From: Alphaproteobacteria bacterium
GTDB lineage: Bacteria; Pseudomonadota; Alphaproteobacteria; Futianiales; Futianiaceae
Assembly (NCBI GenBank): GCA_965204825.1
Contig: OZ242016.1
Coordinates: 1,249,252 to 1,313,251, forward strand
Direction of reading: 5' to 3'
Length of the DNA stretch: 64,000 bases
Below the pieces are notes generated by a model. The model searched no databases. It saw nothing but the letters and a program-made list of their open reading frames with translations, and was not told the DNA's origin. The position numbers and the translations under genes are program-made. This document shows, in pieces, positions 20,618-47,335 of the stretch; position 1 is the first letter of the stretch; each line of letters begins with the position of its first letter.

Positions 20618-20634
20618 AATTTGAAGGAAAAATC

Positions 20635-21980: not shown

Positions 21981-22088
21981 GCGTCTGTCTCCGGGAGTTT
22001 CAGATGGTCGGAGATTTCAACCTCGAACATTACGTCGCCATGCCTGGCGTCCATGTCCATCAGGTTGACGCCGTCCCGCGGTCGCCAG

Positions 22089-22295
22089 TCACCAATTGGC
22101 CTTGAGGCGAAACGGAATGCCCGAGACCGTGCCCTCGACCACCGAACCTGTCGTGGCGGCGGACCGAGGTGCGGTCTGCCCGGGCACCGCCCGGGGGGAT
22201 TCCGGCGCGGCAACCGGTTTGCCGGCCAGTTCGTCGAATTCGCGCCGGCCCCTGTCGAGAAGTTCGTCGAAGCCGGATGAAAATTTCGAAGCCAT
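22089..22295 (-). CDS. small hypothetical protein (68 aa) between the isochorismatase-family gene and the PEP-mutase-family gene
   Basis: MASKFSSGFDELLDRGRREFDELAGKPVAAP... starts 3 nt after the upstream stop. I recognise no family. Confidence 0.3.
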   Translation of the reverse strand: MASKFSSGFDELLDRGRREFDELAGKPVAAPESPRAVPGQTAPRSAATTGSVVEGTVSGIPFRLKANW

Positions 22296-22297
22296 GA

Positions 22298-22969
22298 TCA
22301 AGCGCCTCCCGCCGCCTGTGCCGAGCCATAGGGCGACAACCCGTCCACATAGGCGAGGCATTCGGTCAGCGACACCACATCGGCATATTTGGCGTCGATG
22401 TCGAACAGATTGGCTTCGTGCGGTCCCTCGGCACGGTCGCCGCAGCCCTCGCGCACCACGATGGTCTGATAACCGTATTGCAGCGAGTCGACGGCCGAGG
22501 CCCGGACACAGCCGCTGGTCGTGCACCCGACGATGACACAAGTATCGACGCCGTGGTTGCGGAAATAGATGTCCAGATTGGTGCCGAAGAACGAACTGGC
22601 GTATTTCTTCGAGATGATATAGTCGCCCGTCCCCGGTTTGATCCGCGCGTCGACTTCGCACATGGGCGAGCCGCGCAGCAGGATGCTCAGCGACGGCACC
22701 TTCCTGATAAAGACGCCAGCATCGGCAAAACCAGGCTCGTATTCGATCACGGTGTAAACAATCGGCAGATCAGCCTTGCGAAAGCTGTTCAGCAGTTTGC
22801 CGGTCGCGTCAAGCTGGCTGGAAAAGTCGCCGCCCAGCGGCGATGTCGGGTCGGTAAACCCGACCATATAGTCGACAATCAGCAAACCTGGCCGCCTGCC
22901 ATAACCCGACCGCACCGCAAACCCCTTGCTTCGATAACTCGCCAGCGTGTCTTTCTGCCAGTTGTGCAT
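22298..22969 (-). CDS. isochorismatase-family cysteine hydrolase (N-carbamoylsarcosine-amidase / maleamate-amidohydrolase / nicotinamidase-like), copy 1
   Basis: LLIVDYMVGFTDP...DLPIVYTV...CVIVGCTTSGCVRASAVDSLQYGYQTIVVREGCGDR gives the catalytic Cys in the conserved GxxTxxCVR context. Confidence 0.75.
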   Translation of the reverse strand: MHNWQKDTLASYRSKGFAVRSGYGRRPGLLIVDYMVGFTDPTSPLGGDFSSQLDATGKLLNSFRKADLPIVYTVIEYEPGFADAGVFIRKVPSLSILLRGSPMCEVDARIKPGTGDYIISKKYASSFFGTNLDIYFRNHGVDTCVIVGCTTSGCVRASAVDSLQYGYQTIVVREGCGDRAEGPHEANLFDIDAKYADVVSLTECLAYVDGLSPYGSAQAAGGA

Positions 22970-23102
22970 GGTAACGTCTCCCGCCGCCAGTTTGGGCCAT
23001 GCCGCAACTCTTGCCAACGGCAATGACCTGTTCCAAAGTTAACAGCATAATCGGCATCCGGCAACGCACTCGCGGCGTTGCCCGCAAGGGGACGGCAGGT
23101 AG

Positions 23103-24140
23103 ATGAGCAAATTTTCGGGACCGGGAAGACGGCCCTATGGTTCGGGGGCGCCGGGCGCCATGACCGGTCCGCGCTATCAGCCAAGGCCGTTGATCTCACC
23201 GTCGTCCGATGCCTCGTCCTTGGCCTCGCGCTCGCTGGTCAATGGCGGCAAGAAGGAAATCCTGTGCGCCATCGGCGTCGATGTGGATGCGGTGGCCGGT
23301 TGGCTGGGATCCTATGGCGGCGAGGATTCGCCGTGCGACATTTCCCGCGGCCTGTTCGCCGGCGAGGTTGGCGTGCCGCGCATGGTCCGCCTGTTCAACC
23401 GGCTGCAGATCCCGACCACCTGGTTCATTCCCGGCCACTCGATCGAAACCTTCCCCGATGAGATCAAAATGGTCGTCGATGCCGGCCACGAGATCGGCAT
23501 GCATGGGTATTCCCACGAAAATCCGATCGCCATGACACCGACCCAGGAAGAGGCGGTGATGGATAAATGCATTGACCTGATCGAGCGAGTCTCGGGCCGC
23601 CGGCCGACGGGGTATGTGGCGCCCTGGTGGGAATTCAGCCCGATCACCAACGAGTTGCTGCTGTCCAAGGGCATCAAATACGACCACAGCCTGATGAATG
23701 ACGATTTTCATCCGTTCTATGTACGGGTCGGCGACAGCTGGACCAAGATTGACTATTCCAAACAGGCTGAAGAATGGATGAAGCCGCTGGTACGCGGTGT
23801 CGAAACCGATCTGATCGACATTCCCGGCAGTTGGTATCTGGATGACCTGCCGCCGATGATGTTTATCAAGGGGGCGCCCAACAGCCACGGCTTCGTCAAT
23901 CCGCGCGACATCGAACAGATCTGGACCGACCAGTTCGACTGGGTCTATCGAGAATACGATTATGCGGTCTACACCCTGACAATCCATCCCGATGTGTCGG
24001 GCCGGCCCCAGGTGCAACTGATGCTGGAACGGGTGATCGACTACATCACCTCCCACGCCGGCGTTCGCTTTTGCACCTTTGACGAGATCGCCGACGATTT
24101 CGCCCGCCGATGCCCCCGCAACCAGACCGCCGCGGAATAA
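23103..24140 (+). CDS. polysaccharide-deacetylase-family (NodB fold) hydrolase, PuuE-allantoinase-like
   Basis: [15 protein letters not shown]...HGYSHENP...YVAPWWEF resemble PuuE/CE4-like metal-dependent amidohydrolases. The true start may be an internal Met (e.g. MTGPRY). Confidence 0.75.
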
Positions 24141-24146
24141 TTATCC

Positions 24147-24473
24147 ATGTGTGGCCTGTGCGGCATATTGGGCGGCAAGGGACACTGGACCGACAGTTCG
24201 ACGACGCTGGACGCTTTTGCCGGGCGCACTGATACCCACACCATGCAGCGTGAGCGCATGGAGCGGACCGCGCTGGTCAACCGGGTACTGAAGCCATACC
24301 GGCTTTCGCTGAAAGACTGGTCGGGGACGTCCTATATGCTGCAGGGCGGCACCGGCAAGACGGCAATGGTCGATAATCTGTCTCAGATGTGGGCCGAGGC
24401 AGAACGCATGACCGGCCAGGATTTCGACCCGCTGGATGAAGCGCTGATCGATGAACTGGCGGCGGATCGCTGA
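24147..24473 (+). CDS. hypothetical 108-aa protein starting MCGLCGILGG, in an operon between the deacetylase and the COG0523 GTPase
   Basis: It starts 6 nt after the deacetylase stop and overlaps the GTPase start by 4 nt (GCTGAATGG). I do not recognise the family. Confidence 0.45.
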   Translation: MCGLCGILGGKGHWTDSSTTLDAFAGRTDTHTMQRERMERTALVNRVLKPYRLSLKDWSGTSYMLQGGTGKTAMVDNLSQMWAEAERMTGQDFDPLDEALIDELAADR

Positions 24474-25508
24474 ATGGCCTATGGCGAGCTGATCCCGGTC
24501 AATATGGTCACCGGCTTTCTCGGCAGCGGCAAGACAACCCTGTTGCAGCGGTTGTTGACGTCAACGCTGCTGGCCGACACCGCCGTGCTGGTCAACGAGT
24601 TCGGCGAAGTGGGCCTTGATCATCACCTGCTGCAAAGCGCAACCAATCCGACATTGCTGATGGACAATGGCTGTGTCTGCTGCGCCATTCGCGGCGATCT
24701 GCAGGACGCCCTGCGGGACCTGTTCAATCAGCGAGAGCGTCGCGAAATTCCGGCCTTCAAACGTGTGGTGATCGAAACCTCCGGCCTCGCCGATCCGGTG
24801 CCGATTGCCTATACGGTGCTGGCCGAACCGGTGCTGCGGCACCATTTCCGCCTCGGCAGTGCCATAACCGCGGTCGATGCGGTGAACGGCCTGAACCAGC
24901 TTGAGGAGTTCGAGGAGTCGGTCAAACAGGTTGCCGTGGCCGATCGGCTGATCCTGACCAAGACCGACATCGCCGAAGAAGGCCAGATTGCCGCGCTGAA
25001 GAACCGCCTGGCCGGGATAAACCTGTCGGCGCCGATACTGGACGCCTCGAGCGACGATCTCAGTCCGCAAAGCCTGGTCGTCGAGGACCTGCACGACCCG
25101 GCCGGCAAGGTCCGCGAAGTCGATCACTGGACGGCGGCAGCCGCCCAGCCCCTGAATCACCATCATACCGAAGGGGTTACGTCATTCGCCCTGGTGCTCG
25201 GCCGACCGCTCGACTGGACCGCCTTCGGCATCTGGATGACCATGTTGCTCAACCGGCACGGAGACCGGCTGCTGCGGATCAAGGGGCTCCTGAATGTCAC
25301 TGGCGTCGCAACCCCGGTGCTGATCAACGGGGTCCAGCACGTCGTTCATCCGCCGGTGCATCTGGAAGCCTGGCCCGACGCCGATCGCCGGTCGCGTCTG
25401 GTATTCATTGTCAATGGAATGGACCGCCAGCGGATTGAAGCCTCGCTGTCGGCCTTCAATGGCCTGGCAAACCCGGTGGATGTTGAAAGAGTTACGTTGT
25501 CTGCCTGA
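24474..25508 (+). CDS. COG0523 (CobW/HypB/UreG-family) GTPase, zinc-metallochaperone-like
   Basis: It has GFLGSGKTTLL (P-loop), CVCC, ETSGLADP and a C-terminal CobW_C domain. Confidence 0.85.
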   Translation: MAYGELIPVNMVTGFLGSGKTTLLQRLLTSTLLADTAVLVNEFGEVGLDHHLLQSATNPTLLMDNGCVCCAIRGDLQDALRDLFNQRERREIPAFKRVVIETSGLADPVPIAYTVLAEPVLRHHFRLGSAITAVDAVNGLNQLEEFEESVKQVAVADRLILTKTDIAEEGQIAALKNRLAGINLSAPILDASSDDLSPQSLVVEDLHDPAGKVREVDHWTAAAAQPLNHHHTEGVTSFALVLGRPLDWTAFGIWMTMLLNRHGDRLLRIKGLLNVTGVATPVLINGVQHVVHPPVHLEAWPDADRRSRLVFIVNGMDRQRIEASLSAFNGLANPVDVERVTLSA

Positions 25509-25514
25509 ACCCGT

Positions 25515-26040
25515 TCAGGACCGCGACGATTGCGTCCGCCTGGGCGGCGCGCGTCTTGTGGTCCAACCATCACGGAAGGCCCGCACCATATGGTGCAGCA
25601 GATAGAACAGCAGCGCCAGGATCACCAACAAAACGATGGCCAGCAGATTTTCGCCGAGCCCCGAACCGATAATCGGTTCATCGCCCATCAAATGCAGGGC
25701 CAGCATGGCGACAGCCTGCAAGGTTGCACCGGCCAGAAAGATCACCGCGATCAGAATCGAGATCTGCAGGGTGTCGAACACCAATACCGTGACATCCAAC
25801 GACGTGACCTGCACCGAAAGGTTCTGACGGAACGAACTCCAGTGCGACACGACATAGGCGATAACGCCGACGGTGGAGGCGAACCAGAAGATCACATTAG
25901 TGAAATGGATGTTGGGGATGGCGTCGATCAGAAAGGTTTCGAACGGCGCGTAGAAATACAGAAAGATCAGACCTATGATGATCGCGATCAGGCCGATCCA
26001 GAAACGGGGCCGGCGGCTGACTTCGATTGCTTCAGACATG
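25515..26040 (-). CDS. small 4-TM membrane protein, unknown family (paralog of 39615-40127)
   Basis: MSEAIEVSRRPRFWIGLIAIIIGLIFLYFYAPFE...NVIFW...HW...LQAVAMLALHL... has the same conserved pattern as the second copy. It is transcribed divergently from hyuA1. Confidence 0.55.
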
Positions 26041-26233
26041 ATGTCACCTTGAATGAAAGGTCCGGCCGATCCGTCGGCGTTTCGTCGTCGGATCGTATCG
26101 AAATTCATTTCCCTGTCAAACAGCATGGGGCAATGGTGGTTTACATCGTTGACCCCGCCGCCCGCATGGGAAATCATGTTTTCGATCGGTCACCATTCAA
26201 TCGCCATTTCAGGCAGGGGATGAGGGAGGGGCA

Positions 26234-28288
26234 ATGCCAAGCCGTCTCGGCATTGACGTTGGAGGCACGCATACGGACTTTCTGTTGTTCGAAGGAACAA
26301 CCGGCCGGATCCATGCGCTCAAAACCCCGTCAACACCCGACGATCCGTTACGTGCCATCCAGCACGGGCTGGAAGAACTGATGCATGCCTCGGGCATTCA
26401 GGCGGACGAGATTACCGATCTGGTGCACGGCACCACGCTGCCGGTCAATCTGGTGCTGGAACGCAAGGGCGCAAAGGTCGGCCTGCTGGTCACCAGAGAC
26501 TTCGAGCAGGTTCTGCATCTGGCGCGCGGGCGCACGCCGGGGCCGCTGACCGGCTGGATGCATATGGACAATCCCGAGGCGCTGGCCGACCTGGGAATGA
26601 CCCGGGGGATCGTCGAGCGCGTCTCGGCCCATGGCGACACGATCACTCAGCTGGATGAGGCCGCGGCGCGCCAGGCAATCGCCGAACTGTTACAGGCCGG
26701 CGCGGAGACGCTGACGGTTTCCCTGCTGCATTCCTATGCCAATCCGGCTCATGAATTGCAACTCAAGGCCATCATCCGGGAAATGAACGAGAAAATTCCG
26801 GTCTCGCTGTCCTGCGAACTGACCCCGGAAGCCGGCGAGTACGAACGAACCCTGGCGAGCGTGATGAACGCCTATGTCCAACCCGGCATGCAGCGCTATC
26901 TCGGCGGTCTCGAAGATCGGTTGAAGTCGGTTCAGGCCGGACCGGAAATCAAGATAGTCCAGTCCTCCGGCAGCCTGACAAGTGCGCGCCAGGCCGCCGA
27001 GACGCCGGTACAGGCCATGACGGCCGGCCCGGCCGGCGGTGCGGCCGGCGCGGCGCGCATTGCCATGTTGGCGGGGTATCCGGACGCGCTGTCGCTGGAT
27101 ATGGGCGGCACGTCGGCGGACATCGCCCTGATCCGCAACGGCATGGCGCGGATGGCGAACCAAACAAATGTGGGCGGCGAACCGGTTACCGTCCCGTCGC
27201 TCAATGTGCGCAGTATCGGCGCCGGCGGCGGGCTGATCGCACATATGCCGATGCCGGGCATGTTGCGCGTCGGGCCGCAAAGCGCCGGAGCTGTGCCAGG
27301 CCCGGCCTGTTACGGACGCGGCGGAAAAACGGCAACGGTAACCGACGCCCATGTGGTGCTGGGCCGTCTGCCGGGCGCGCACCTGTCGCTGGATGTTCAG
27401 GCGGCGGCGAATGTGATGGCCGCTTTCGGGCGCGAACTGGGCCTGGATCGCCACCGCGCGGCCGAGGGTATAATCGACATTGCCAATGAATCCATGGCCG
27501 GCGCCCTGCGCCTGGCGGCCGTGGAAAAAAATCAGTATCCAGGCAATCTTGCCCTGGTCACCTTTGGCGGCGCCGGGCCAATGCACGGCTGTGCCCTGGG
27601 AACGCTGACCGGCGCCCAGCCCGTTATCGTTCCACGCAATGCCGGCGTTCTGTCCGCGCTGGGATTTCTGACATCCGATACAACCGGCCAATTTACACAA
27701 GGGGTGTGCCGGACCCTGGATAATATCGGAATACAACAGATCGGCGAGATCATCGAACGGCTCGGCGCCCGGGCTGCGGCTTGGCTTGCAGCGGAAGGCG
27801 GCGGTGGAACCCGGAGGGTCAACTACCGGGCCGACGTGCGTTATTTCCGGCAGGAATTCCAGACATCGCTGGAGGTCGATCCGGTGAGCCTGGCCCATGG
27901 CGGCCTGAACGCACTGGCCGCCCGTCTGGGCGATGCACACCATCGCCGATTTGGCATGAAGCTGGACCAGCCGGTTGAGATCGTCGCCCTGCGCGCCATC
28001 GCCGCCGTCAAGGAAGAGCATGCTACCTTGCCCAAGTCCGAGCGTGGCGGCCCCGATCCCGCCGCCGCCAGGATTGACGAGACACAGGTCTATTTCGACG
28101 GCGGCTTTACCAGGACCGCCATCTTTAAGCGCAAGAAGTTGACCGCCGGCAACCGGATCCCGGGACCCGCGATCATCGTCCAGAAAGATGCGACCACAGT
28201 CATCCATCCCGGCCATATCGGCGAGGTGGATGATTATCTGAACATTCTTATCCGGACAGAGGGCGCAGCGCCCGGACGGCGGCACTGA
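26234..28288 (+). CDS. hyuA: hydantoinase/oxoprolinase subunit A (HyuA-like, ATP-dependent N-methylhydantoinase A family), copy 1
   Basis: LGIDVGGTHTDFLLF, the sugar-kinase/Hsp70-like ATPase fold and overall colinearity with the hydantoinase A / acetone-carboxylase beta family support the call. Confidence 0.9.
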   Translation: MPSRLGIDVGGTHTDFLLFEGTTGRIHALKTPSTPDDPLRAIQHGLEELMHASGIQADEITDLVHGTTLPVNLVLERKGAKVGLLVTRDFEQVLHLARGRTPGPLTGWMHMDNPEALADLGMTRGIVERVSAHGDTITQLDEAAARQAIAELLQAGAETLTVSLLHSYANPAHELQLKAIIREMNEKIPVSLSCELTPEAGEYERTLASVMNAYVQPGMQRYLGGLEDRLKSVQAGPEIKIVQSSGSLTSARQAAETPVQAMTAGPAGGAAGAARIAMLAGYPDALSLDMGGTSADIALIRNGMARMANQTNVGGEPVTVPSLNVRSIGAGGGLIAHMPMPGMLRVGPQSAGAVPGPACYGRGGKTATVTDAHVVLGRLPGAHLSLDVQAAANVMAAFGRELGLDRHRAAEGIIDIANESMAGALRLAAVEKNQYPGNLALVTFGGAGPMHGCALGTLTGAQPVIVPRNAGVLSALGFLTSDTTGQFTQGVCRTLDNIGIQQIGEIIERLGARAAAWLAAEGGGGTRRVNYRADVRYFRQEFQTSLEVDPVSLAHGGLNALAARLGDAHHRRFGMKLDQPVEIVALRAIAAVKEEHATLPKSERGGPDPAAARIDETQVYFDGGFTRTAIFKRKKLTAGNRIPGPAIIVQKDATTVIHPGHIGEVDDYLNILIRTEGAAPGRRH

Positions 28289-28290
28289 TC

Positions 28291-30592: not shown

Positions 30593-33409
30593 ATGCTGGA
30601 AATCTGGATTGGGCTTGTCTTCACGGTGATCGTCATCATCGCCGTCTTCTACGTGATTTCAATCTGGGTCTATAAACGGGCCCCGGCGAATATGGGCTTC
30701 ATTCGAACTGGCTTCATGGGGACCAAGGTGTGCCTGGGCCGCGGTGCCATGGTACTGCCGGTGTTCCACGAGGTGTCGTGGATTTCGCTGGAGACCCTGA
30801 AGCTGATCGTCAACCGCTCGCGCGAGCAGGCGGTGCTGACTGCCGACAAGATCCGAATCGACGTGGTGACCGAGCTCTATACCCATGTGGGCCGGACCGA
30901 AGATGACTTGCTGACCGCCAGCAGGTCCCTGGGCGAGAAAACCTTCGAGGCTGACCAGGTCCGTAATCTGCTGGAAGCCAAGGTCATCGGCGCCCTGCGC
31001 AGCTATGCCGCCACCAAGACCCTGACCGAACTGCACGAAAACCGCGACGCCTTCGCCCAGGCGATCAAGGAAGCGGTACTTGAAAGTTTCCGGTCCAATG
31101 GTCTGGAACTGGAGGAAGTCACGATTGTCACCCTGGAACAGGCCGGCAAGGAGTTTTTCAATTCCAACAACATCTTCGATGCCGAGGGTCTGAAAATCAT
31201 CACCGACATCACCTCGGATGCCAAGCGCAAGGTGCACGACACGGAAAAGCGGACCACCGTCGCTATCCGCCAGAAGGATTTGGACACCCAATTGGAGTTG
31301 CTCGAGATCGAGCGGAAAGAGGCTTTTGCCCAAGCCGCCCAGGACAAGGACGTGGCCAACGAGCAGGCCCTGCAACTGGGCGAAAAGCAGGTCTTCCTGC
31401 TTGACCGTCGCAAGGCGGTTGAGGAGCGCGAGATCGCCAACGAGGTCGAGCTGGAACGCCAGCGCACCGATCGCGAACTGGCTGTCACCGAGGAAGCCAA
31501 GAAGCGCGAGCAGGCGGAAATACAGCGCATGCTGGCCCTGGAACAGGAACAGCGCGACAAGGAGATCGCCCTGATCGAAAAGGCCAAGGAAGAGGAACTG
31601 GCCAATATCGAACGCAACCTGTCGCTGGAACAGGCGGAAAAAGACCGGCAGATTGCCTTGATCGAAAAGGCCAAGCAGGAAGAGTTGGCCGAGATCGACC
31701 GCAGTCTTTCCCGCGAACGTGCCGAAAAGGTCCGGTCCATCGAGCTGGCGGCCAGCGAGCGTGAGCGCAAGGAAACCGAGATCGCCCTGGAGACCGAGAT
31801 TCAAAAAGCCGAGGAAGCCGCCCGTGATGCGCGTCATCAGGTGTCGGAGGAGATCGCGATCAAGATCCGCCAGCGCACGCTGGAGACCCGGAAAGAAACC
31901 TTGAACATTGATCAGGACGAGGCGATTGCCGTCGCCCTGCAGGAAAAGACGGTGTCGGAGGAGAAAGCCAAGGCACTGTCGGAGAAACAGCGCAACCTGC
32001 TGGAACGCCGCCTGGAGGTCGAACGCGAGGAGATCGCCAAGGATAAAGCCATCGAGGAAGCACAGATCCGGAAAGAAGCCGAGCTCATCGACATCTCCAA
32101 GGCCCGCGAAGCCGCCGAAATCCGCAAGCAATTGGCCCGCGAGGCTGAGGAACGCGACCGCGATATCGCCCTGGTCGGCAAGGCCGAGGAACTGGAACGG
32201 GCCGAGATCCGCCGCCAACTGGCGCGTGAGGCCGAGGAGCGCGACCGCGAGATCGCCCTGGTCGGCAAGGAGGAGGAATTGCGCAAGGCCGAGGTTCAGC
32301 AGCGCGCAACGATCGAGCTGGAACAGAAGGACAGAGAAATCCGGGTCATCGCCAAGGAGCAGGAACGTGAAAAGGCCGATATCCAGCGCTTCCTGGCCCG
32401 CGAGACCGAGGAACGCGAGCGCGAGATCATCCTGGTCAAAAAGACCCGCGAGCTTGAAGAGGCCGAAATCGACCGTCTGCGGATCACCGCCGAAAAGGCC
32501 AAGGCCGAACACGAAACCGGCGCCGTCCGGATCATCGCCGATGCCGAACAGGAAAAGGCGGTGGAACTGATCCGCGCCGAACAGGCCGCCGACGCCTCGC
32601 GCATTGCCGAAAAGACCCAGGCCGAGATCGCCTCAATGCACCTGGTCAGTGAGGCCGAGGCACGCAAGAATTCCGCCGCGCAGGATTCTGATGCCATCCT
32701 GGTCCGAGCCAGGGCCAACAGCGAGGCTCGGAAGATCTCTGCCAGCGGCATTCAGGAAGAAGCCGCCGCGCGCGGCCGGGCCGAGGCGGAAGTGGAAAGC
32801 CTGCGTGTGGAAAACACGCAAGCCATGCTGGAGGCCGAAGCCACGGGCATGGAGGCCAAGGCAACCGCGTTGAAGAAATACAATGATGCGGCAATGTTCC
32901 TGGAACTGTCCAAACTGCATATCGAGGCCGAGCGCGACGTTCACATCGACCAGGCCAAGGCCATGGGCAACGCCCTGGCGGGAGCTCAGATCCGCATGTA
33001 TGGCGGCGGCGACGGCACGGTCGACACGATCCGCGACATGTTTACGTCGGGCTTCTCGATGGGCGAAGTTCTGGAGGGCGTGGCCCAGTCCCTGCCCGCC
33101 GGCCTGCGCGACCGGTTCGCCAGCAACGGTATTCGCGGCATCTTCGGCAAACCCGGCCGCACCGGCCAGTTCCAGGAAATGGCCGGCCAGCTGGCGCAAT
33201 TGGTGCGCGATAATTTCGGCAACAAGAAATCGCGCGAGATCCCCTTCGGCGAGGCCATGGCGGTGCTGGAAAACAAGGCTGGCGACAACGAGGTCCAGGT
33301 TCAGGCCCTGAACCTCCTGAAAACTGCCAATGAAGACGGCGTCTTCAACGAGGTACCGTTCGACACGGTCTGGTCGCTGTTGCAGGCCACCGCCAAGGCG
33401 GCGGAATAG
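30593..33409 (+). CDS. flotillin-like SPFH/band-7 protein (YqiK-like) with a greatly expanded coiled-coil repeat region (~940 aa)
   Basis: An N-terminal TM helix is followed by an SPFH domain (FIRTGFMGTKVCLGRGAMVLPVFHEV...), then by EA-rich heptad repeats that include near-identical ~29-aa units. The C-terminus is flotillin-type. The gene follows hyuB1 on the same strand. Confidence 0.75.
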   Translation: MLEIWIGLVFTVIVIIAVFYVISIWVYKRAPANMGFIRTGFMGTKVCLGRGAMVLPVFHEVSWISLETLKLIVNRSREQAVLTADKIRIDVVTELYTHVGRTEDDLLTASRSLGEKTFEADQVRNLLEAKVIGALRSYAATKTLTELHENRDAFAQAIKEAVLESFRSNGLELEEVTIVTLEQAGKEFFNSNNIFDAEGLKIITDITSDAKRKVHDTEKRTTVAIRQKDLDTQLELLEIERKEAFAQAAQDKDVANEQALQLGEKQVFLLDRRKAVEEREIANEVELERQRTDRELAVTEEAKKREQAEIQRMLALEQEQRDKEIALIEKAKEEELANIERNLSLEQAEKDRQIALIEKAKQEELAEIDRSLSRERAEKVRSIELAASERERKETEIALETEIQKAEEAARDARHQVSEEIAIKIRQRTLETRKETLNIDQDEAIAVALQEKTVSEEKAKALSEKQRNLLERRLEVEREEIAKDKAIEEAQIRKEAELIDISKAREAAEIRKQLAREAEERDRDIALVGKAEELERAEIRRQLAREAEERDREIALVGKEEELRKAEVQQRATIELEQKDREIRVIAKEQEREKADIQRFLARETEEREREIILVKKTRELEEAEIDRLRITAEKAKAEHETGAVRIIADAEQEKAVELIRAEQAADASRIAEKTQAEIASMHLVSEAEARKNSAAQDSDAILVRARANSEARKISASGIQEEAAARGRAEAEVESLRVENTQAMLEAEATGMEAKATALKKYNDAAMFLELSKLHIEAERDVHIDQAKAMGNALAGAQIRMYGGGDGTVDTIRDMFTSGFSMGEVLEGVAQSLPAGLRDRFASNGIRGIFGKPGRTGQFQEMAGQLAQLVRDNFGNKKSREIPFGEAMAVLENKAGDNEVQVQALNLLKTANEDGVFNEVPFDTVWSLLQATAKAAE
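32140..32320 (+). repeat. tandem ~87-bp coding repeats (RQLAREAEERDR[D/E]IALVGK[A/E]EEL[E/R][R/K]AE[I/V]) inside the flotillin gene
   Basis: Direct nucleotide repeats (gcccgcgaggctgaggaacgcgaccgcgatatcgccctggtcggcaaggccgaggaactgga...) occur twice in tandem. A third degenerate copy lies at ~32390 and another repeat pair at ~31560-31740. Confidence 0.5.
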
Positions 33410-33431
33410 CGTTCAGGGAAAGGAACGCGCG

Positions 33432-34538
33432 ATGGCAGATTACGACGTCGTTCTGGAAGGCGTCGACAAGACCTATCCCGACGGGGTGCGCGCGGTCATC
33501 GATTTCAATGCCGAAATCGAACACGGCGAATTCGTTGCCATGCTGGGACCCTCGGGTTGCGGCAAGACCACCACCCTGCGTATGATCGGCGGCCTGGAGG
33601 AGGTCACCGCCGGCAAGATTTTCATCAAGAACGAAGACGTGACGGACCTGCCGCCGTCACGGCGCGACACCTCGATGATGTTTCAGAGCTTTGCTCTTTT
33701 TCCCCACCGCAACGTTTTTCAGAACGTGGAATTTTCCCTGAAAATGCAGGGCATGGGCAAGGATGTCCGGGCACCCAAGGTCTGGGAAATGATCGAGATG
33801 GTCGGGCTGAAGGAATTCGCCACGCGCCGGCCCAGCGATCTTTCCGGCGGCCAGCAACAGCGTGTTGCCCTGGCCCGTGCCCTGATCTCCAACCCGACCC
33901 TGTTGCTGCTGGACGAACCGCTGGGCGCGCTCGACTATTCCCTGCGCCAGACCATGATGTTCGAGCTCAAACGCATCCAGCGCGATCTCGGCCTGACATT
34001 CATCATGGTCACCCATTCCCAGCAGGAAGCCATGGCCATGGCCGACAAGGTCATCGTCATGTCGGATGCGCTGATCCAGCAGACCGGCACCTCGCGCCAG
34101 ATCGCCGAGGCGCCGCGCACCAGATTTGTCGCCGAGTTCATCGGCAACAACAATCTGTTCAGCGGCGTCGTCAAATCCCGCAGCGGCTCGATCGTTTTCG
34201 TCGAGTCGGGAGAAAATTTCTTTTACGTCAAGGTGCCGGACGATCATCGCCAGATCGACGTCGGCGCTTCGGTCACCTTCTCGGTCCGCGCCGACCTGAT
34301 GCATGCCGGTGATCACCCCGACATGGGCAACAGTATCGAGGGCACCTTCTTCAACACCGAATATCTGGGCACCCTGGAAACCGATGTCTTCGAGATCGCG
34401 CCGGGCCAATACGTTTCGGTCGAACAGCACCGCAAGATCTCGGACCGCGAACGCACCCCGGGCGAAAAGCAGATCATCAGTTGGGGTGCAGAGGCGGGGA
34501 TATTGCTGGAAGAGGCAGGAAGTCGGCAAAACGCGTAA
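33432..34538 (+). CDS. ABC transporter ATP-binding protein, PotA/spermidine-putrescine-type with a C-terminal TOBE domain
   Basis: It has Walker A GPSGCGKTT, the signature LSGGQQQRVALARAL, Walker B LLLLDEPLGALD and a C-terminal regulatory beta-domain. Confidence 0.85.
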   Translation: MADYDVVLEGVDKTYPDGVRAVIDFNAEIEHGEFVAMLGPSGCGKTTTLRMIGGLEEVTAGKIFIKNEDVTDLPPSRRDTSMMFQSFALFPHRNVFQNVEFSLKMQGMGKDVRAPKVWEMIEMVGLKEFATRRPSDLSGGQQQRVALARALISNPTLLLLDEPLGALDYSLRQTMMFELKRIQRDLGLTFIMVTHSQQEAMAMADKVIVMSDALIQQTGTSRQIAEAPRTRFVAEFIGNNNLFSGVVKSRSGSIVFVESGENFFYVKVPDDHRQIDVGASVTFSVRADLMHAGDHPDMGNSIEGTFFNTEYLGTLETDVFEIAPGQYVSVEQHRKISDRERTPGEKQIISWGAEAGILLEEAGSRQNA

Positions 34539-34620: not shown

Positions 34621-35448
34621 CTACTGCGACCTTCGGAACAGGATCGTATAGATCGCCAGGAACGTCCCGATCATCAGCAGCGAAAACAATGTCGAGACCG
34701 TGCCGAGGGCAAACAGCGTCGGCCGGATACGCTGGGTCATCGAGGCATTGATGTCGAGCGGCAGCGTGTTGAATTCACCGGCCAGCAGCGTGGTGCGGGC
34801 AAATTCGTCATAGGAGAGCGTGAAGCCGAACAGGCCGGCGGCGACAATGCCCGGCAGGATCAGGGGGAAGGTGACCTCCTTGAACACCTTCCATTCGCTG
34901 GCGCCCATGTCGCGGGCCGCCTCCTCCAGCCGGGCATCGAAACGATTGAAGACCGCCATCATCACCAGATAGCCGAACGGCAGAGCCCAGACGACGTGCA
35001 CCGCCAGGGCCGAGGTATACCAGGACGGCGACAGGCCCAGCTGACGCATCAGGATGGCCAGCCCCAGGCTGAGCAGAACGCCCGGGATCATCAGGCCGGA
35101 CAGGATGGTGTAGAACAGCACGTTGGAAAACCGGAACTTCTTGCGAAACGCCATGGCCAGCATGGTTGAAAACAGGGCCGTAATCACCATCACCATCAGG
35201 GCCAGCATGATCGACCGGCCCATGGCGCCCTGCAGATCGCCGACCACCGAAGGCTCGATCAGCTTGTTCCACCAATAAAGGCTCCACCCACGCATGGGAA
35301 AGCTGGTGCCGCCGCGCCGGCCCTGGAAGGACAGGATGAACATGGCGATCATCGGTCCATAGATGAACAGCAGGAAGATGATGTAATAGATGCTGAAGCC
35401 GGTCTTCACCCGCAGCTTGCGACGCCGTTCCGGGGTCCAGCGGACCAT
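34621..35448 (-). CDS. ABC transporter permease (PotC-like)
   Basis: It has 6 TM helices and the binding-protein-dependent permease EAA motif region (EAARDMGASEWKVFKEVTFPLILPG). Confidence 0.85.
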   Translation of the reverse strand: MVRWTPERRRKLRVKTGFSIYYIIFLLFIYGPMIAMFILSFQGRRGGTSFPMRGWSLYWWNKLIEPSVVGDLQGAMGRSIMLALMVMVITALFSTMLAMAFRKKFRFSNVLFYTILSGLMIPGVLLSLGLAILMRQLGLSPSWYTSALAVHVVWALPFGYLVMMAVFNRFDARLEEAARDMGASEWKVFKEVTFPLILPGIVAAGLFGFTLSYDEFARTTLLAGEFNTLPLDINASMTQRIRPTLFALGTVSTLFSLLMIGTFLAIYTILFRRSQ

Positions 35449-35646: not shown

Positions 35647-36627
35647 CTACAGCTCCTTCCGGATATCAATCAGGCGCAGGATGATGATGATGCCGACGAC
35701 CATGGCCAGCATCAGCATCAGCGCGTTGACCGCGGCGAACGGGTAGTTCGCAATGCCGTAATAGTTCAGGATCACGGTGCCCGCCGTGCTGGTCTTGCCG
35801 CCATAGACGACCACGGCGGTGGCAAATTCGCCCATCAGCATGACGAAAATGAAGATCATGCCGATGGCAACGCCGGGCAGGGACATCGGCATGATGATTT
35901 CACGGAAGATCTGGAACGGGGTGGCGCCCATGTCGATGGCCGCCTCGATAATCGACTTATCGATCTTGGCCAGCGAGAAGAAGATCGGCCCGATGGACAG
36001 CACCACATAGATCTGGACCAGGGCCAGGACATAACCGAACTCGGAATAAAACAGGAAGGTCGCCGGCTTGTCGATGACCCCCATGCCCATCAGGGCCTGG
36101 TTGATAAGCCCCTTGCGTCCCAGCATCGGCAGCCACGCAACCGCCCGGATCAGATAGCTGGTCCAGAACGGCACCATGCACAGCAGGAAGAGGGACAACT
36201 GCCATTTGAAGGCCTGGACCTGCATGGCCAGGAAATAGGCGATCGGATAACCGATGATCAGGCACAGCACCATGACAACCAGTGTGTAATAGATCGTTGA
36301 TCCCAGGGTCCGGATGAAGATGCTCGGCAGCAGGAAGCGTTTGGCTTCGGGATCGAAAAATCCCTCGGTAAAGAAATACTCGCCATAATATTGCAGCGTC
36401 AGATCGGGCACCATGCCCTGCGGCGTCAACGTCCAGAAACTGAAGACAATGATCGAGGCCAGCGGAACGACCAGAAAGACGACCAGCCACAGGGTCGCCG
36501 GGGCAATCAGCCAGCCGGTGGCAAAGCCTTCCTCCGGCCGGACGATCCTGGCGCGAACCGCCACCTCGTCAGGTTTGGGCTGCGCGCCGATCAATCCTGG
36601 ATGCTGGCTGTGACTGATATCGGTCAT
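35647..36627 (-). CDS. ABC transporter permease (PotB-like)
   Basis: It has 6 TM helices and the motif IEAAIDMGATPFQIFREIIMPMSLPG. Confidence 0.85.
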   Translation of the reverse strand: MTDISHSQHPGLIGAQPKPDEVAVRARIVRPEEGFATGWLIAPATLWLVVFLVVPLASIIVFSFWTLTPQGMVPDLTLQYYGEYFFTEGFFDPEAKRFLLPSIFIRTLGSTIYYTLVVMVLCLIIGYPIAYFLAMQVQAFKWQLSLFLLCMVPFWTSYLIRAVAWLPMLGRKGLINQALMGMGVIDKPATFLFYSEFGYVLALVQIYVVLSIGPIFFSLAKIDKSIIEAAIDMGATPFQIFREIIMPMSLPGVAIGMIFIFVMLMGEFATAVVVYGGKTSTAGTVILNYYGIANYPFAAVNALMLMLAMVVGIIIILRLIDIRKEL

Positions 36628-36729: not shown

Positions 36730-38004
36730 CTAGGCGTTGAGGAACTCGGTCCAGCGCTTCACCAGATAATCGTTCTCGCTCATGATCGAATTCCACACGG
36801 CGATCTTCTTGAAGCGCTGCTCGTATGAGCCGCCATCGCGGATCGTGCCTTTTTCAACCAGGGGCGAACCGAACGGATCCGGCAATTCCTCGGCCGCCGG
36901 CTTGCCCTCATACCAGTAATCCCATTCGATCGGCGGCAGGGCTATCCTGGTGTTTGCCGGGGTCGACATGTAGTAACCCTGACGGGCCACAAACGCGCCG
37001 GCCCAGCCGCTGAGCCACCAGTTGATATACTCATAAGCCTGATCCAGCCTGGCGCCTTGGGTCCTGGCGGAAATCGCCAGCGCGCCGTGCCAGCCACGCA
37101 TGCCTTCCTTGGGCGAGGCATAGATGCACGGAACACCCTCGGCATTAACCGCGGTGACGGCCGGCGACCACATGGATTGCACGGCAACCTCGCCGCTGAC
37201 CATCAGGTTGACCGACTGGCCGAAGGTTTCCCAGAACGCCCGGAAATGACCGGCTTCTTTCTTCGTGATCAGGAAGTCGACCAGGAAGTCGATCTCCTCG
37301 CGGGTCATGTCACCCTTGTCGCCGAAGGTCTTCAGGCCCAGGGCCTCAACCCCCATGGCTGCATCCATCACACCGATTTGGGGCACGTTGATCAGGGCGA
37401 CCCTGCCCTGGAAATCCTCGCTGAACATTTCCGCCCAGCTTTCAATCTCGCGGCCCGTATCGTCCGGATTGTAGCCAAGCGAGTCCGCATTGTGCCAACC
37501 CGGCACCGCTGAGATATAGCGTGAGGGACCGTCCGTTGGCTTGCCGTTTTCATCGACCCACAGCTTGGTCACCGGGGCGTCGCCCTGGCCGACGGTCGAA
37601 CCTTCCGTCAGCTTGCCGGTCTTGGTCAGATTGGACACCTTGTCCCAATCCTTGATCCGCTGGGTATCGACCGGCTGGAATACACCGGCGGGCAGCATGA
37701 CGTCGAACATGTCGAAATAACATTCCGACACTTCATATTCGTTGTTCTGGTTCAGTGTCTTGCCGAACAGGGCGCCATATCCCAGCGCCTGGCCGCGAAC
37801 ACCGAAGCCCAGATCCCCGGCCGCCTTGCTTTGAATTTCGTTGATGATGCTGACGCCCAGGCCGATCGACCGGATCGGATCGGCGGCGTGAACGATATTG
37901 GGGAAACTGATTATTGAACTGGCGGCAGCGGCGCCTGCCGCTCCCCCTACGAACTTCCGGCGCGACACACCCTTGCCGGGGACCCTGAATTTGCCTTTAG
38001 CCAT
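36730..38004 (-). CDS. periplasmic substrate-binding protein (PotD/PotF-type family 1) with a Tat-like signal
   Basis: The N-terminal signal SRRKFVGGAAGAAAASS is twin-arginine-like, and the length and family fit PotD/PotF. It is first in a minus-strand operon with the two permeases. Confidence 0.85.
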   Translation of the reverse strand: MAKGKFRVPGKGVSRRKFVGGAAGAAAASSIISFPNIVHAADPIRSIGLGVSIINEIQSKAAGDLGFGVRGQALGYGALFGKTLNQNNEYEVSECYFDMFDVMLPAGVFQPVDTQRIKDWDKVSNLTKTGKLTEGSTVGQGDAPVTKLWVDENGKPTDGPSRYISAVPGWHNADSLGYNPDDTGREIESWAEMFSEDFQGRVALINVPQIGVMDAAMGVEALGLKTFGDKGDMTREEIDFLVDFLITKKEAGHFRAFWETFGQSVNLMVSGEVAVQSMWSPAVTAVNAEGVPCIYASPKEGMRGWHGALAISARTQGARLDQAYEYINWWLSGWAGAFVARQGYYMSTPANTRIALPPIEWDYWYEGKPAAEELPDPFGSPLVEKGTIRDGGSYEQRFKKIAVWNSIMSENDYLVKRWTEFLNA

Positions 38005-38180: not shown

Positions 38181-39632
38181 GTGAGCGTACTGATCAAGAA
38201 CGGCCGGATCGTCACGGCGAGCGATGATTATCACGCCGACATCTTCATCCATGATGAAACCGTCGACCTGATCGGCGCCGACCTGGAGATAAATACCGAT
38301 CTGGTCATCGACGCCGGCGGCAAGCTGGTCATTCCCGGCGGCATTGATCCGCACACTCATCTTGAACTGCCCTTTGGCGGTACCGTCACGTCGGACACGT
38401 TCGAGACCGGGACCCGCGCCGCCGCCTTTGGCGGCACCACCTGCATTATCGATTTCGCGGTCCAGTTCCAGGGCACTTCGGCCCTGGACGCGCTGGAAAC
38501 CTGGCATGAAAAGGCCGCCGGCAAGACCGCCATCGACTATGCCTTTCACATGATTCTGACCGATATGCCGGAAAGCCGGACCCGGGAAATGCGTGTCTTG
38601 GCCGAAGAAGGTGTCACCAGCTACAAGATGTTCATGGCCTATCCCGGCGCGATGCTGTCGGATGACGGCACGATCTTCCGGGCCATGCGCCAGGCCGGCG
38701 AGGACGGCACCCTGGTGTGCATGCATGCCGAGAACGGCATCGTCATGGACGAGTTGATCAAGATCGCGCTGTCGCAAGGTCACATCGAGCCCAAATATCA
38801 TGCCCTGACCCGTCCGACGCGGCTGGAGGCCGAAGGGGTTCACCGGGCCCTTGCAATTGCCGAGGTGGCAAAGTCCCCCTGCTATATCGTCCATCTCAGC
38901 AGCTATGATGCGCTTCAGGAATTGCGCATGGCACAGGCGCGCGGCGTCATGGCCCATGCTGAAACCTGTCCGCAATATCTCCTGCTTGATATCGCCAAAT
39001 ACGACGAACCCGGTTTCGACGGCGCGAAATATGTGCTGACCCCGCCCTTGCGCGAGAAATGGAACCAGGAGGAACTGTGGCGCGGCCTGCGCGGTAATGC
39101 CCTGAACGCCATATCGACCGATCATTGCCCGTTCTGCATGAAGGAACAGAAGGAACTGGGAAAAACCGACTTTTCAAAGATCCCCAATGGCGGCCCGGGC
39201 ATCGAAAACCGGATGAGCCTGATTTATCATTACGGGGTCAGCGGCGGCTATATAGATATCAACCGCTTTGTCGAGCTGACCTCGACCGGGCCGGCCAAAA
39301 TCTTCGGCCTGTTCCCCAGGAAGGGCACTATCGCGGTAGGCAGCGACGCCGACATCGTGATCTTCGACCCCGACCGGGAAGAGACCATCAGCTATTATAA
39401 CGGCCACACCCATCACATGAACATCGACTACAACGCCTATGAAGGGATGCTGGTCAAGGGCTTCACCGAAACGGTCTTCAGCCGCGGCCGGATGATCATC
39501 GACAAGGGTCAGTATCTGGGGCGGGCCGGTGACGGAAATTTCGTCAGGCGCGGGCCTTATGGCGGGCAATACCGGCCGGCGAAATCAGGCGATATCCCTT
39601 CTCGCGCGCCGGGATCACGCCATGGGATTTAG
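38181..39632 (+). CDS. dihydropyrimidinase / D-hydantoinase (cyclic amidohydrolase)
   Basis: VLIKNGRIVTASDDYHADIFI...GGIDPHTHLELPFGGT and the metal-binding His, Lys and Asp positions match the DHPase/D-hydantoinase family. Confidence 0.85.
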   Translation: MSVLIKNGRIVTASDDYHADIFIHDETVDLIGADLEINTDLVIDAGGKLVIPGGIDPHTHLELPFGGTVTSDTFETGTRAAAFGGTTCIIDFAVQFQGTSALDALETWHEKAAGKTAIDYAFHMILTDMPESRTREMRVLAEEGVTSYKMFMAYPGAMLSDDGTIFRAMRQAGEDGTLVCMHAENGIVMDELIKIALSQGHIEPKYHALTRPTRLEAEGVHRALAIAEVAKSPCYIVHLSSYDALQELRMAQARGVMAHAETCPQYLLLDIAKYDEPGFDGAKYVLTPPLREKWNQEELWRGLRGNALNAISTDHCPFCMKEQKELGKTDFSKIPNGGPGIENRMSLIYHYGVSGGYIDINRFVELTSTGPAKIFGLFPRKGTIAVGSDADIVIFDPDREETISYYNGHTHHMNIDYNAYEGMLVKGFTETVFSRGRMIIDKGQYLGRAGDGNFVRRGPYGGQYRPAKSGDIPSRAPGSRHGI

Positions 39633-40127
39633 GTCTGATCCGGCACCGACCGGGTCCGATGCCCCCACCGTCCGAATATTTTTCAGCAGCCAGAAAATGA
39701 TACAGAACAGGCCGGTCAGGATGAGCAGCGCAATCAGCGCGACCAGCCGTTTGCCGAAGGCGCCGTCCAGTGCGTAGCCCGGCTGCAGCAGGTGGACGGC
39801 CAGCATCTGCATGGCCTGCAGCGCCGCGCTGGCGCTGAGCAGGATGGCAGTGAAGGTCGACCCCCGGAGTGAACTGAGAACCATGGCCTCGACATTGCGC
39901 TGTTTGACGATGTGCAGGCGATAGGCCCGCCAGTGGAAGGCGCAAAAGCCGATAATGCCGATGATCACCCCGGCCCAGAAGATTGCATTGCTGTAGCTCA
40001 GGCCACGGACGACCAGATTGAACAAATCTTCGAACGGTTTATAGAAATACAGGAATATCAGGACGATGATGTAGACGATGAAACCCACGAGGGTCCAAAA
40101 CCACTGCCAGACGCTCATATCCCCCAC
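39615..40127 (-). CDS. small 4-TM membrane protein, unknown family (paralog of 25515-26040)
   Basis: The shared motifs are LIFLYFYKPFE...NAIFW...HW...LQAMQMLAVHL. Its 3' end overlaps the dihydropyrimidinase 3' end in convergent orientation. Confidence 0.55.
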   Translation of the reverse strand: MGDMSVWQWFWTLVGFIVYIIVLIFLYFYKPFEDLFNLVVRGLSYSNAIFWAGVIIGIIGFCAFHWRAYRLHIVKQRNVEAMVLSSLRGSTFTAILLSASAALQAMQMLAVHLLQPGYALDGAFGKRLVALIALLILTGLFCIIFWLLKNIRTVGASDPVGAGSDLNPMA

Positions 40128-41455: not shown

Positions 41456-42103
41456 ATGAGCGATCCATCCGACAGCATCTACAAGGACCGCAGTTATGGC
41501 GCCGGCGAGATCGGCTATGGCGATATGCCGGGGATCGCGGTGGTGGATTTCCAGAATGCCTTTACCGATCCGCAATATGCCCTGGGCGGGGCACCGATGA
41601 TCGACCGGGCGGTGAACAATAGCGCCCGCCTGCTGGACGTGGCCCGCCGGTGCAAGGTTCCGGTCGCGACCTGCTATACGGCCTACACCTCCAAGGCGGA
41701 CATGCCCTATTGGAAGGTATCCGCGGTGCAGGAACAGCTGATCCACGGCAGTCACGCGACGGAACTGGACCCACGGATCTATGATCCCGACTATGATGTG
41801 CGTCTGAGCAAGACCGGTGCGTCGATCTTCTTTCAGACCCCGATCGTACCGTTCATGGTGAAACAGAAGGTGGACACGCTGATCGTCGTCGGCTGTGTCA
41901 CCTCGGGCTGTGTTCGCGCTTCGATCATCGACAGTTTTCAGAACGGGTTCCGCACCATCGTGCCCGAGGACGGGGTCGGCGATCAGGACGAGCGGCCGCA
42001 CAATGACAATCTGCGCGATGTCGACCGGCGCTATTGCGACATCACCGATGTCGATAGCGTAATCGAATGGATCGAGGCCTGGCGCGGGCGCAACGAACAC
42101 TGA
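41456..42103 (+). CDS. isochorismatase-family cysteine hydrolase (N-carbamoylsarcosine-amidase-like), copy 2
   Basis: IAVVDFQNAFTDP...VPVATCYTAY...LIVVGCVTSGCVRASIIDSFQNGFRTIVPEDGVGD shows the same catalytic Cys context as copy 1. Confidence 0.8.
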   Translation: MSDPSDSIYKDRSYGAGEIGYGDMPGIAVVDFQNAFTDPQYALGGAPMIDRAVNNSARLLDVARRCKVPVATCYTAYTSKADMPYWKVSAVQEQLIHGSHATELDPRIYDPDYDVRLSKTGASIFFQTPIVPFMVKQKVDTLIVVGCVTSGCVRASIIDSFQNGFRTIVPEDGVGDQDERPHNDNLRDVDRRYCDITDVDSVIEWIEAWRGRNEH

Positions 42104-47180: not shown

Positions 47181-47335
47181 CCTTCCCCGCTCCCCTTTCT
47201 CGATTACCCGTTGGGACGATAGAGGCAGGCGCGAAATTGACCAAGCAGGGATGTGGTAGGTGCATGAGCGTAGAAGAATTGGCCTCCTCTTCAAAATCAT
47301 GCTGAACTGTCGGCCGTCTTGGAGGGAGCGACGGA

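Follow-up and report, generated by a model that had tools for sequence, protein, structure and literature searches.

Genes A and B, found in the genome of a bacterium of the class Alphaproteobacteria, encode two paralogous membrane proteins with four transmembrane (TM) segments which, as judged by database searches, form a new family, and both genes are part of a single conserved supercluster some 25 kb long. They lie in a stretch of 64,000 nucleotides of contig OZ242016.1 (assembly GCA_965204825.1, positions 1,249,252 to 1,313,251), called the window below. A preliminary description of this DNA, made from the letters alone, had noticed the two proteins, had placed each beside a hydantoinase operon (hyuAB) and had supposed a dedicated transport or sensor role. 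We found that the near-invariable partner of B is the gene of another orphan membrane protein, M358, rather than hyuAB. As to their function, we propose that A and B could be small accessory subunits in a complex that handles solutes at the membrane, a reading to which we give a probability of about 0.35.

Judged by their alignment and by their relatives, A and B are real, strongly conserved genes whose paralogy stands far above chance. With composition correction on, BLASTP aligned 146 residues of the two proteins at 34% identity (E 9e-23), and this alignment holds all the motifs from which their kinship had been proposed, namely LIFLYFY.PFE, N.IFW, HW and LQA..MLA.HL. As a single family profile also recovers both the A-type and the B-type subfamily, the likeness is, at the sequence level, true homology and goes beyond a shared hydrophobic composition. 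The positions first reported for B are correct, whereas those for A are one base too long: the frame closes at 26039 and not at 26040, which is why the interval 25515-26040 could not be translated. The longest open reading frame (ORF) for A extends to 26177 (220 aa). We favour the 174-aa start at 26039 because of a promoter-like site in the spacer that separates A from hyuA1, an AGGTGA ribosome-binding site immediately 5′ of the ATG at 26039, and the lengths of A homologues, which are mostly 167-177 aa. The promoter-like site matches the consensus at 10 of 12 positions, and the scan returned 3 sites versus 0.2 expected in shuffled sequences. For B, homologues begin at the residue equivalent to the ATG at 40118, and it is probably this codon, and not the GTG of the 170-aa frame, that is the true start, giving 167 aa. 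B is convergent with the dihydropyrimidinase gene, the two 3′ ends overlapping by 18 nt (39615-39632), and a scan of the window detected no terminator-like structure between them.

The statement that the two proteins match no known family proved correct. Searched against Pfam-A and NCBIfam, neither reaches a curated cut-off, and nothing better than E 0.018 was obtained; the best sub-threshold matches, BcsF at E 0.018 (15 bits, the cut-off being 23) and Cation_ATPase_C at E 0.15, cover short stretches of TM helix. Precomputed labels graded ‘faint’ assign four A-type homologues (P0047, P0049, P0051 and P0065) to PF28548, 4TM_phosphoesterase, and none of the four individually reaches 0.001; our own Pfam scan, whose copy may lack this newer entry, gave no PF28548 hit. 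A profile of the four-TM family matched zero chains in the PDB, a PLSDB plasmid search gave no matches, and the PADLOC defence models matched neither A nor B, nor M358, the flotillin-like protein or p108, three neighbours described below. Homologues at E of 0.001 or better numbered 532 for A and 553 for B in a set of 5.8 billion proteins. Those with a name are all ‘hypothetical protein’ save P0094 (‘ABC-type xylose transport system permease subunit’), and the closest relatives with a named source come from marine Alphaproteobacteria such as Limibaculum and Boseongicola. An exhaustive HMMER search over 1.84 billion representatives returned 87 matches, which comprise four full-length clusters at 50% identity (two A-type and two B-type), the remainder being fragments; neither fusions to other domains nor distant relatives were present among these 87. 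On the evidence of these searches, A and B make up a compact orphan family of two subfamilies that is new and unclassified.

The four TM segments described earlier are supported both by hydropathy and by an AlphaFold2 (AF2) model of A, which is all-helical with a short tail and consists of four long helices and one short helix after TM1, at a mean predicted local distance difference test score (pLDDT) of 71. A fold search with this model was uninformative, as it returned generic helix bundles only (BAR domains, connexins and designed proteins). Both terminal tails and loop 2 are basic, in contrast to the acidic or neutral loops 1 and 3; this charge distribution indicates a predicted topology in the inner membrane with both termini inside (N-in/C-in). 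Conservation of at least 90% in both subfamilies (83 A-type and 60 B-type unique sequences) was found at 19 positions, M1, F13, W14, L24, F26, L27, Y28, F29, P32, F33, N48, W52, H66, W67, L91, G104, Q108, G129 and F145, which concentrate in TM1-TM3 and include the polar N48, H66 and Q108; for E34 the figures in the two subfamilies are 89% and 97%. The LYFYxPFE motif forms the end of TM1, N48/W52 the start of TM2, and Q108 lies in TM3, so that under the predicted topology these residues would be grouped in the outer (periplasmic) leaflet, with H66/W67 at the cytoplasmic face. Conserved positions that distinguish the subfamilies gather in cytoplasmic loop 2, TM3 and TM4. Median identity to the window protein is 63% for A, compared with 56% for HyuA1 and 55% for HyuB1; by this measure the four-TM proteins are conserved about as well as the enzymes of the cluster, and this conservation is purifying.

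Gene linkage was assessed in two surveys. For A, one genome per GTDB species was taken, which gave 217 stretches with relatives of the family, their sources being Alpha-, Beta- and Gammaproteobacteria of the sea and of soil; the best 80 of them, every one A-type and from a metagenome-assembled genome (MAG) of these three classes, were examined, and the window proteins were mapped onto the loci by tblastn. hyuA lies within 3 kb of A in 80 of the 82 A-type loci with enough flank, and in 77 it is divergent from A. Three gammaproteobacterial MAGs have the order CobW, A, hyuA1, hyuB1 and flotillin with all genes co-directional. Wherever the sequence suffices, the flotillin-like gene stands 3′ of hyuB1, and the ABC ATPase gene comes next. 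On its other flank A is accompanied by a CobW-p108-deacetylase group, in which p108 is always between the deacetylase gene and CobW, and next to the deacetylase gene the isochorismatase-family gene of module 1 is conserved as well. In 65 of 88 loci CobW is no more than 3 kb away from A. Two exceptional loci (L063 and L066) have the hyu side swapped for unrelated genes, A remaining there with CobW-p108, and in three Xanthobacteraceae loci (L080, L081 and L084) A is present and CobW and p108 are missing.

For B, a metagenome scan with a B-type profile yielded 72 loci. Of the 50 loci with at least 1.5 kb of upstream sequence, 49 have M358 ahead of B on the same strand, occasionally with an amidase gene in between; the gaps between M358 and B are mostly 100-330 nt, and neither a promoter nor a terminator was found between them in the window. 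hyuB, by comparison, is directly upstream on the same strand in 23 of 35 M358-B pairs. On the 3′ side of B (53 loci with at least 1.5 kb downstream) we found the dihydropyrimidinase gene in 21 cases, an ABC binding-protein gene on the same strand in 17 and ABC permease B in 7, which results in gene strings of the type hyuA-hyuB-M358-B-SBP-permeases, SBP being the solute-binding protein. Long B loci (e.g., L103, L106, L119 and L141) continue through the ABC ATPase, flotillin, hyuB1 and hyuA1 genes, with ABC importer genes adjoining B in most of them, and the A-centred locus L159 shows the same long string, terminating in A. Since A and B occur in these long shared strings, they are two parts of one conserved supercluster and not independent modules. 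In two marine alphaproteobacterial loci the gene between M358 and B has the amidase signature PF01425 (L088:8489-9922 and L089:6258-7691); no hyuAB pair is directly upstream there, and UPRTase and Sua5/YciO-like genes are nearby.

The surveys thus confirm co-occurrence beyond this genome, and the linkage with hydantoinase operons claimed in the preliminary description is real, although it was drawn too narrowly, as the genes belong to one supercluster and track M358 and the flotillin-like protein. Adjacency to hyuAB holds exactly for A, with a divergent spacer of 194 nt between it and hyuA1, and loosely for B, which lies 2 kb from hyuA2 on the opposite strand, with M358 and an isochorismatase-family gene intervening. 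The co-occurrence is not confined to this genome, and the searches place the family in no known housekeeping family, which counts in favour of the preliminary description; of the roles that it supposed, those of the transport type are plausible.

The divergent layout of A and hyuA1 is typical of regulator-operon pairs, and it might be taken to mean that the four-TM proteins sense a periplasmic substrate and control the expression or activity of the cluster. Such a role would also agree with the conserved aromatic and polar cluster that is predicted to face the periplasm, and with the lack of a classical transcription factor among the genes of the cluster in the window. We nonetheless consider it improbable, because the proteins have no output domain (kinase, GGDEF, DNA-binding and anti-sigma fusions are all absent from the 87 representative matches) and no conserved signalling partner, the lone GGDEF neighbour (L087) being located in a locus which also carries transposase genes. 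In addition, B stands at the end of enzyme/transport operons, which is not the position of a regulator.

M358, the partner of B, had been described as a co-oriented protein of about nine TM segments. The gene and its orientation are as reported, but the AF2 model contains 10 TM helices (pLDDT 75.5 overall and 80-90 in the C-terminal bundle). Its 241 homologues carry inconsistent source names or are called ‘hypothetical’; no Pfam domain was matched, the DctM/TctA signature is absent, and a sequence-profile search of the PDB gave only noise at E > 1. Many charged residues are invariant, and most of them are predicted by the positive-inside rule to lie in cytoplasmic loops (D196, K197, R200, K205, R212, E213, D261, R262, R268, K337 and D338). 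The possibility that M358 is a duplicated four-TM unit or a relative of A and B was rejected, as hhalign probabilities did not exceed 1.5% for any pair of segments and M358 showed no internal repeat. The top Foldseek match was TMEM175, which appeared among generic helical bundles; M358 differs from the TMEM175/DUF1211 K+ channels by a long linker and by three additional helices at its N-terminus, and the resemblance is a lead only.

Shared evolutionary history was assessed by a mirror-tree comparison, i.e., by correlating query-anchored pairwise distance matrices across loci. This method is crude, and the genes of a cluster share much of their phylogeny, so that the correlations are informative only when set against one another. 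The closest match to A is the flotillin-like protein (r 0.87), followed by CobW (0.84), p108 (0.82) and the deacetylase (0.81); the values for the hydantoinase subunits HyuA1 (0.57) and HyuB1 (0.43) are clearly lower. The best correlations of B are with M358 (0.84) and, at 0.81 each, with ABC permease B and the ABC ATPase. By these contrasts, the four-TM proteins follow the cluster's membrane machinery and not the hydantoinases. The hyu genes seem, from such comparisons, to have a partly independent history. HyuA1 and HyuB1 of the window are about 55% identical to nearly all pairs in the orthologous position, which average about 72% among themselves, and this low identity persists in loci with values of 72-84% for A, the flotillin-like protein and the deacetylase; the pattern suggests that the hyu pair at 26234-30549 was replaced in place, or has diverged at an accelerated rate, in the window genome.

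The correlations of A with CobW and p108 also bear on the idea that the four-TM proteins take up Zn, Co or Ni, or hand it over to the CobW metallochaperone and to the metal-dependent deacetylase-family and amidohydrolase enzymes. It would fit the convergent position of A next to the CobW/COG0523 gene in most loci, the fact that A stays beside CobW-p108 where the hyu side has been lost, and the invariant His66 and conserved Glu34 of the family. This explanation is nevertheless very unlikely, mainly because B-type proteins share the invariant residues and yet were never seen next to a CobW gene. Moreover, there is a single invariant His and no His- or Cys-rich motif, a Pfam search gave no similarity to the NiCoT, CbtA, HupE or ZIP families, and the three Xanthobacteraceae loci keep A in the absence of CobW and p108.

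We now return to a solute-handling role. A and B would be subunits of the membrane machinery used in the catabolism of cyclic amides of the hydantoin, dihydropyrimidine or lactam type. B and the 10-TM M358 may form a two-subunit permease or channel, and A may be the equivalent small subunit beside the flotillin-like scaffold. The outer-leaflet cluster of LYFYxPFE, N48/W52 and Q108 would then be a recognition or passage site for a small polar solute, possibly one which the neighbouring HyuAB enzymes, ATP-dependent and ring-opening, use as substrate or co-substrate or release as product. In favour of this reading are the constant M358-B order, the strings that join this pair to the SBP and permease genes, the correlations of B with M358 and ABC permease B, and the predicted periplasmic side of the conserved cluster. 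A and B would work in a manner akin to the small four-TM subunits DctQ (of TRAP transporters) and TctB (of TTT transporters). Like A and B, DctQ (PF04290) and TctB (PF07331) have four TM segments in a length of about 150-230 aa, are poorly conserved in sequence between families, and are encoded in catabolic clusters near a larger multi-TM partner and a solute-binding-protein gene, an arrangement comparable to the M358-B-SBP order in 17 of 53 loci. They differ in that the large partner M358 has 10 TM segments and lacks the DctM/TctA signature, that the nearby binding protein is of the ABC type (SBP_bac_8) with two permeases and an ATPase of its own, and that A-type genes have no adjacent large partner. 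Membership itself was rejected: PF04290 and PF07331 gave no match to A or B even at E of 10 or better. The small transporters of the SMR/EmrE-Gdx family (PF00893; about 105-120 aa, with a glutamate in TM1) are also different, since there is no Pfam match and A and B have 167-177 aa and a fixed positive-inside bias. What A and B most likely are, namely accessory membrane subunits within a catabolic or transport module, is a kind of protein already known; the supercluster in which they reside is conserved but undescribed.

Several observations weigh against such a role. With a complete ABC importer already present in the supercluster, there is no need for a further way of uptake. Next to A there is no large membrane partner, and the neighbour that correlates best with A is a scaffold and not a permease. 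Homology to transporter families was not found in Pfam, NCBIfam or the PDB, nor were internal repeats of the transporter type found in M358, whose resemblance to TMEM175 falls short of significance (E 1.1 and probability 0.28 in Foldseek); the fold search with A pointed to nothing specific. Finally, the predicted topology and the putative ‘pocket’ depend on the positive-inside rule and on the model of pLDDT 71.

A different use of the membrane proteins is brought to mind by the extensions of the hydantoinase subunits. HyuB1 carries an N-terminal extension of 177 aa (window 28291-28821) that is conserved across 15 loci; it starts with an amphipathic helix (SLDDLLxANKxxFDxxF), continues as a Pro/Ala-rich linker, which is variable, and ends in a domain of about 75 aa with a WSxE...ALxxCA motif. 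The helix is retained in lineages without the ~75-aa domain, and the domain itself gives weak but recurrent Pfam matches to Rad52_Rad22 (5 of 14 sequences, best E 6e-4). HyuA2 begins with a different conserved helix, LTSWFDxQLxxLKxxVxDLGG, and a long low-complexity linker rich in Pro comes after it (window 42140-42517). The same extension is present in the orthologues of L108 and L115, and we therefore place the start of the gene at 42140 and not at the start of the Pfam domain near 42518. Helix-plus-linker arrangements of this kind are typical of tethering or targeting peptides. The flotillin-like protein, in turn, has an N-terminal TM segment, a Band_7 domain and about 500 residues of E/A/R/K-rich, coiled-coil-like repeats, which places it within the SPFH definition; at about 950 aa it is unusually long, and it scores 38 bits against the FloT equivalog, whose cut-off is 700.

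The main alternative to solute handling, though we regard it as doubtful, is that A and B together with the flotillin-like scaffold dock the soluble HyuAB enzymes to the inner membrane near the ABC importer by binding their terminal helices, and perhaps also the Rad52-like domain, and so create a membrane-bound metabolon. The two kinds of helix, the first of which is kept even without the domain that follows it, speak for docking, as does the Rad52-like domain, with its possible role in oligomerisation, which occurs also at the C-terminus of the HyuB preceding M358-B in L090 (8238-8840); HyuB2 of the window, on the other hand, is devoid of it. That A is co-directional with hyuA1, hyuB1 and flotillin in the three gammaproteobacterial MAGs, and that the flotillin-like protein is its best tree match, would be expected of such an assembly, but the poor correlation of A with HyuA1 and HyuB1 would not be expected of direct binding partners. 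Similarly, the predicted cytoplasm-facing F13, W14, H66 and W67 and the subfamily-specific conservation of loop 2 would suit partner-specific docking, whereas the densest shared conservation is predicted in the periplasmic leaflet and not at the cytoplasmic face, and contact between A or B and the Hyu proteins is wholly hypothetical. A precedent exists in a metabolic cluster of about 26 kb where a flotillin gene is co-transcribed with a specialised membrane protein (PMC10308929).

This precedent, the flotillin-associated rhodopsin (FAR) cluster, is conserved in marine SAR11, HIMB59 and Pseudothioglobus (PMC10308929), and it is the only published analogue we found. Literature searches that combined hydantoinase and flotillin, or hydantoinase, COG0523 and deacetylase, returned nothing, and those for hyuA/hyuB with a membrane protein, or for N-methylhydantoin pathway clusters, returned unrelated papers only. 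Both clusters link a flotillin gene to a specialised multi-pass membrane protein, to transporters and to amide/urea-type enzymes (PMC10308929). They differ in that the FAR membrane protein is a 7-TM rhodopsin encoded directly beside the flotillin gene, in that the FAR enzymes are another set (a PxpA-like protein, carboxylases and formamidase), and in that the FAR description mentions no HyuAB, CobW, M358 or four-TM family (PMC10308929). The NfeD partners of flotillins (the YqiJ-YqiK and NfeD2-FloA pairs) offer a second comparison, as they too are small membrane proteins genetically coupled to a flotillin-like gene. The correlation between A and the flotillin-like protein, and their co-directional placement in one operon in some gammaproteobacterial MAGs, recall this coupling. 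However, NfeD has a soluble C-terminal OB-fold (PF01957), whereas A and B are all-helical and have no NfeD match in Pfam; two hyu genes normally stand between A and the flotillin-like gene, and B has no flotillin gene of its own.

By analogy with bacterial microcompartments, whose encapsulation peptides would be the counterpart of the terminal helices of the Hyu proteins, docking can be extended to a flotillin-organised, membrane-attached catabolic compartment. A, and B together with M358, would then act as receptors that capture HyuAB via its terminal targeting helices, the putative ring-forming Rad52-like domain would multimerise the cargo, and ABC uptake would be physically coupled to ring opening within a flotillin microdomain. 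We think this rather unlikely. The probability left over from the solute-handling proposal and its alternatives goes to roles outside those listed here.

Whichever role applies, resolving what A, B and M358 do would define either a new small-subunit transporter architecture or a case in which a flotillin organises a defined metabolic pathway; the latter, if true, would be among few concrete examples of its kind in bacteria. A functional assignment would also replace the ‘hypothetical protein’ labels with a meaningful name.

Table 1. Genes A and B, the candidate promoter of A and the other members of the supercluster in the window.
Feature	Position	Strand	Basis and remarks
Isochorismatase-family amidohydrolase, module 1	22298..23023	-	NCBIfam biuret amidohydrolase and RutB matches, all below cut-off
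Polysaccharide-deacetylase-family enzyme	23103..24140	+	Partial resemblance to PuuE allantoinase
p108, 108-aa orphan with N-terminal CGLCG motif	24147..24473	+	No Pfam match; translation; synteny
CobW/COG0523-type metallochaperone GTPase	24474..25508	+	Pfam cobW and CobW_C; convergent with A
Protein A, A-type four-TM membrane protein	25515..26039	-	174 aa; ORF and translation
Candidate sigma-70-like promoter of gene A	26092..26119	-	TTGACA-16-TACGAT, within the divergent A/hyuA1 spacer; pattern match
HyuA1, hydantoinase/oxoprolinase A family	26234..28288	+	Pfam Hydant_A_N, Hydantoinase_A, Hydant_A_C; divergent from A
HyuB1, hydantoinase B family, 752 aa	28291..30549	+	Pfam Hydantoinase_B at residues 178-687
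Flotillin-like SPFH protein, ~950 aa	30527..33409	+	Pfam Band_7, E 5e-13
ABC transporter ATPase	33330..34538	+	Pfam ABC_tran; downstream of the flotillin-like gene
ABC permease B	34621..35448	-	Pfam BPD_transp_1
ABC permease A	35647..36627	-	Pfam BPD_transp_1
ABC solute-binding protein	36730..38004	-	Pfam SBP_bac_8
Dihydropyrimidinase / D-hydantoinase	38181..39632	+	TIGR02033, 591 bits versus cut-off 393
Protein B, B-type four-TM paralogue	39615..40127	-	170 aa from GTG; 167 aa from ATG at 40118
M358, orphan 10-TM membrane protein, 358 aa	40201..41277	-	Co-oriented with B, 73 nt upstream of B
Isochorismatase-family amidohydrolase, module 2	41456..42103	+	Pfam Isochorismatase; divergent from M358-B
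HyuA2, conserved N-terminal helix and Pro-rich linker	42140..44563	+	Pfam
HyuB2, hydantoinase B family	44585..46480	+	Pfam Hydantoinase_B; ‘N-methylhydantoinase B’ in some sources

By their domain content, the neighbours of A and B are HyuA/HyuB, SPFH, CobW, ABC importer and dihydropyrimidinase proteins (Table 1). Both hyuA-hyuB pairs have the domains that define HyuA and HyuB (E 1e-45 to 1e-148), and the specific Hyu equivalogs (caprolactamase and acetophenone carboxylase) are far under their NCBIfam cut-offs, including caprolactamase alpha, the nearest NCBIfam model of HyuA1. Because several kinds of cyclic-amide hydrolase are combined here with an ABC importer and a flotillin-like scaffold, the supercluster probably mediates the use of an abundant dissolved organic nitrogen compound. 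A route from creatinine through N-methylhydantoin to N-carbamoylsarcosine was considered for module 2, as it fits the pairing of an isochorismatase-family enzyme with HyuAB and the source labels of HyuB2, and it was not adopted because no equivalog reaches its cut-off. An Rfam scan of the whole window gave no riboswitch or other Rfam element.

The deacetylase-family enzyme is 76-89% identical across alpha-, beta- and gammaproteobacterial loci, compared with merely 50-65% for its neighbours, and is, by these identities, under unusually strong constraint; p108, encoded between it and CobW, may be a metal-handling partner. At the left border (19658-22280) we found HMG-CoA-lyase-like, redoxin and PEP-mutase/isocitrate-lyase-family genes; in related loci, genes for a family III CoA-transferase and for a Zn-dependent alcohol dehydrogenase are present in addition. 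This set of border genes suggests that the ring-opened carbon skeleton could be processed via a CoA-ester lyase route. Three ORFs of 319, 160 and 443 aa, taken at first for a TRAP transporter at the start of module 1, proved to be the HMGL-like gene, the redoxin gene and a non-gene. At the opposite end, two Sua5/YciO-like ORFs follow right after hyuB2 (window 46485-48085).

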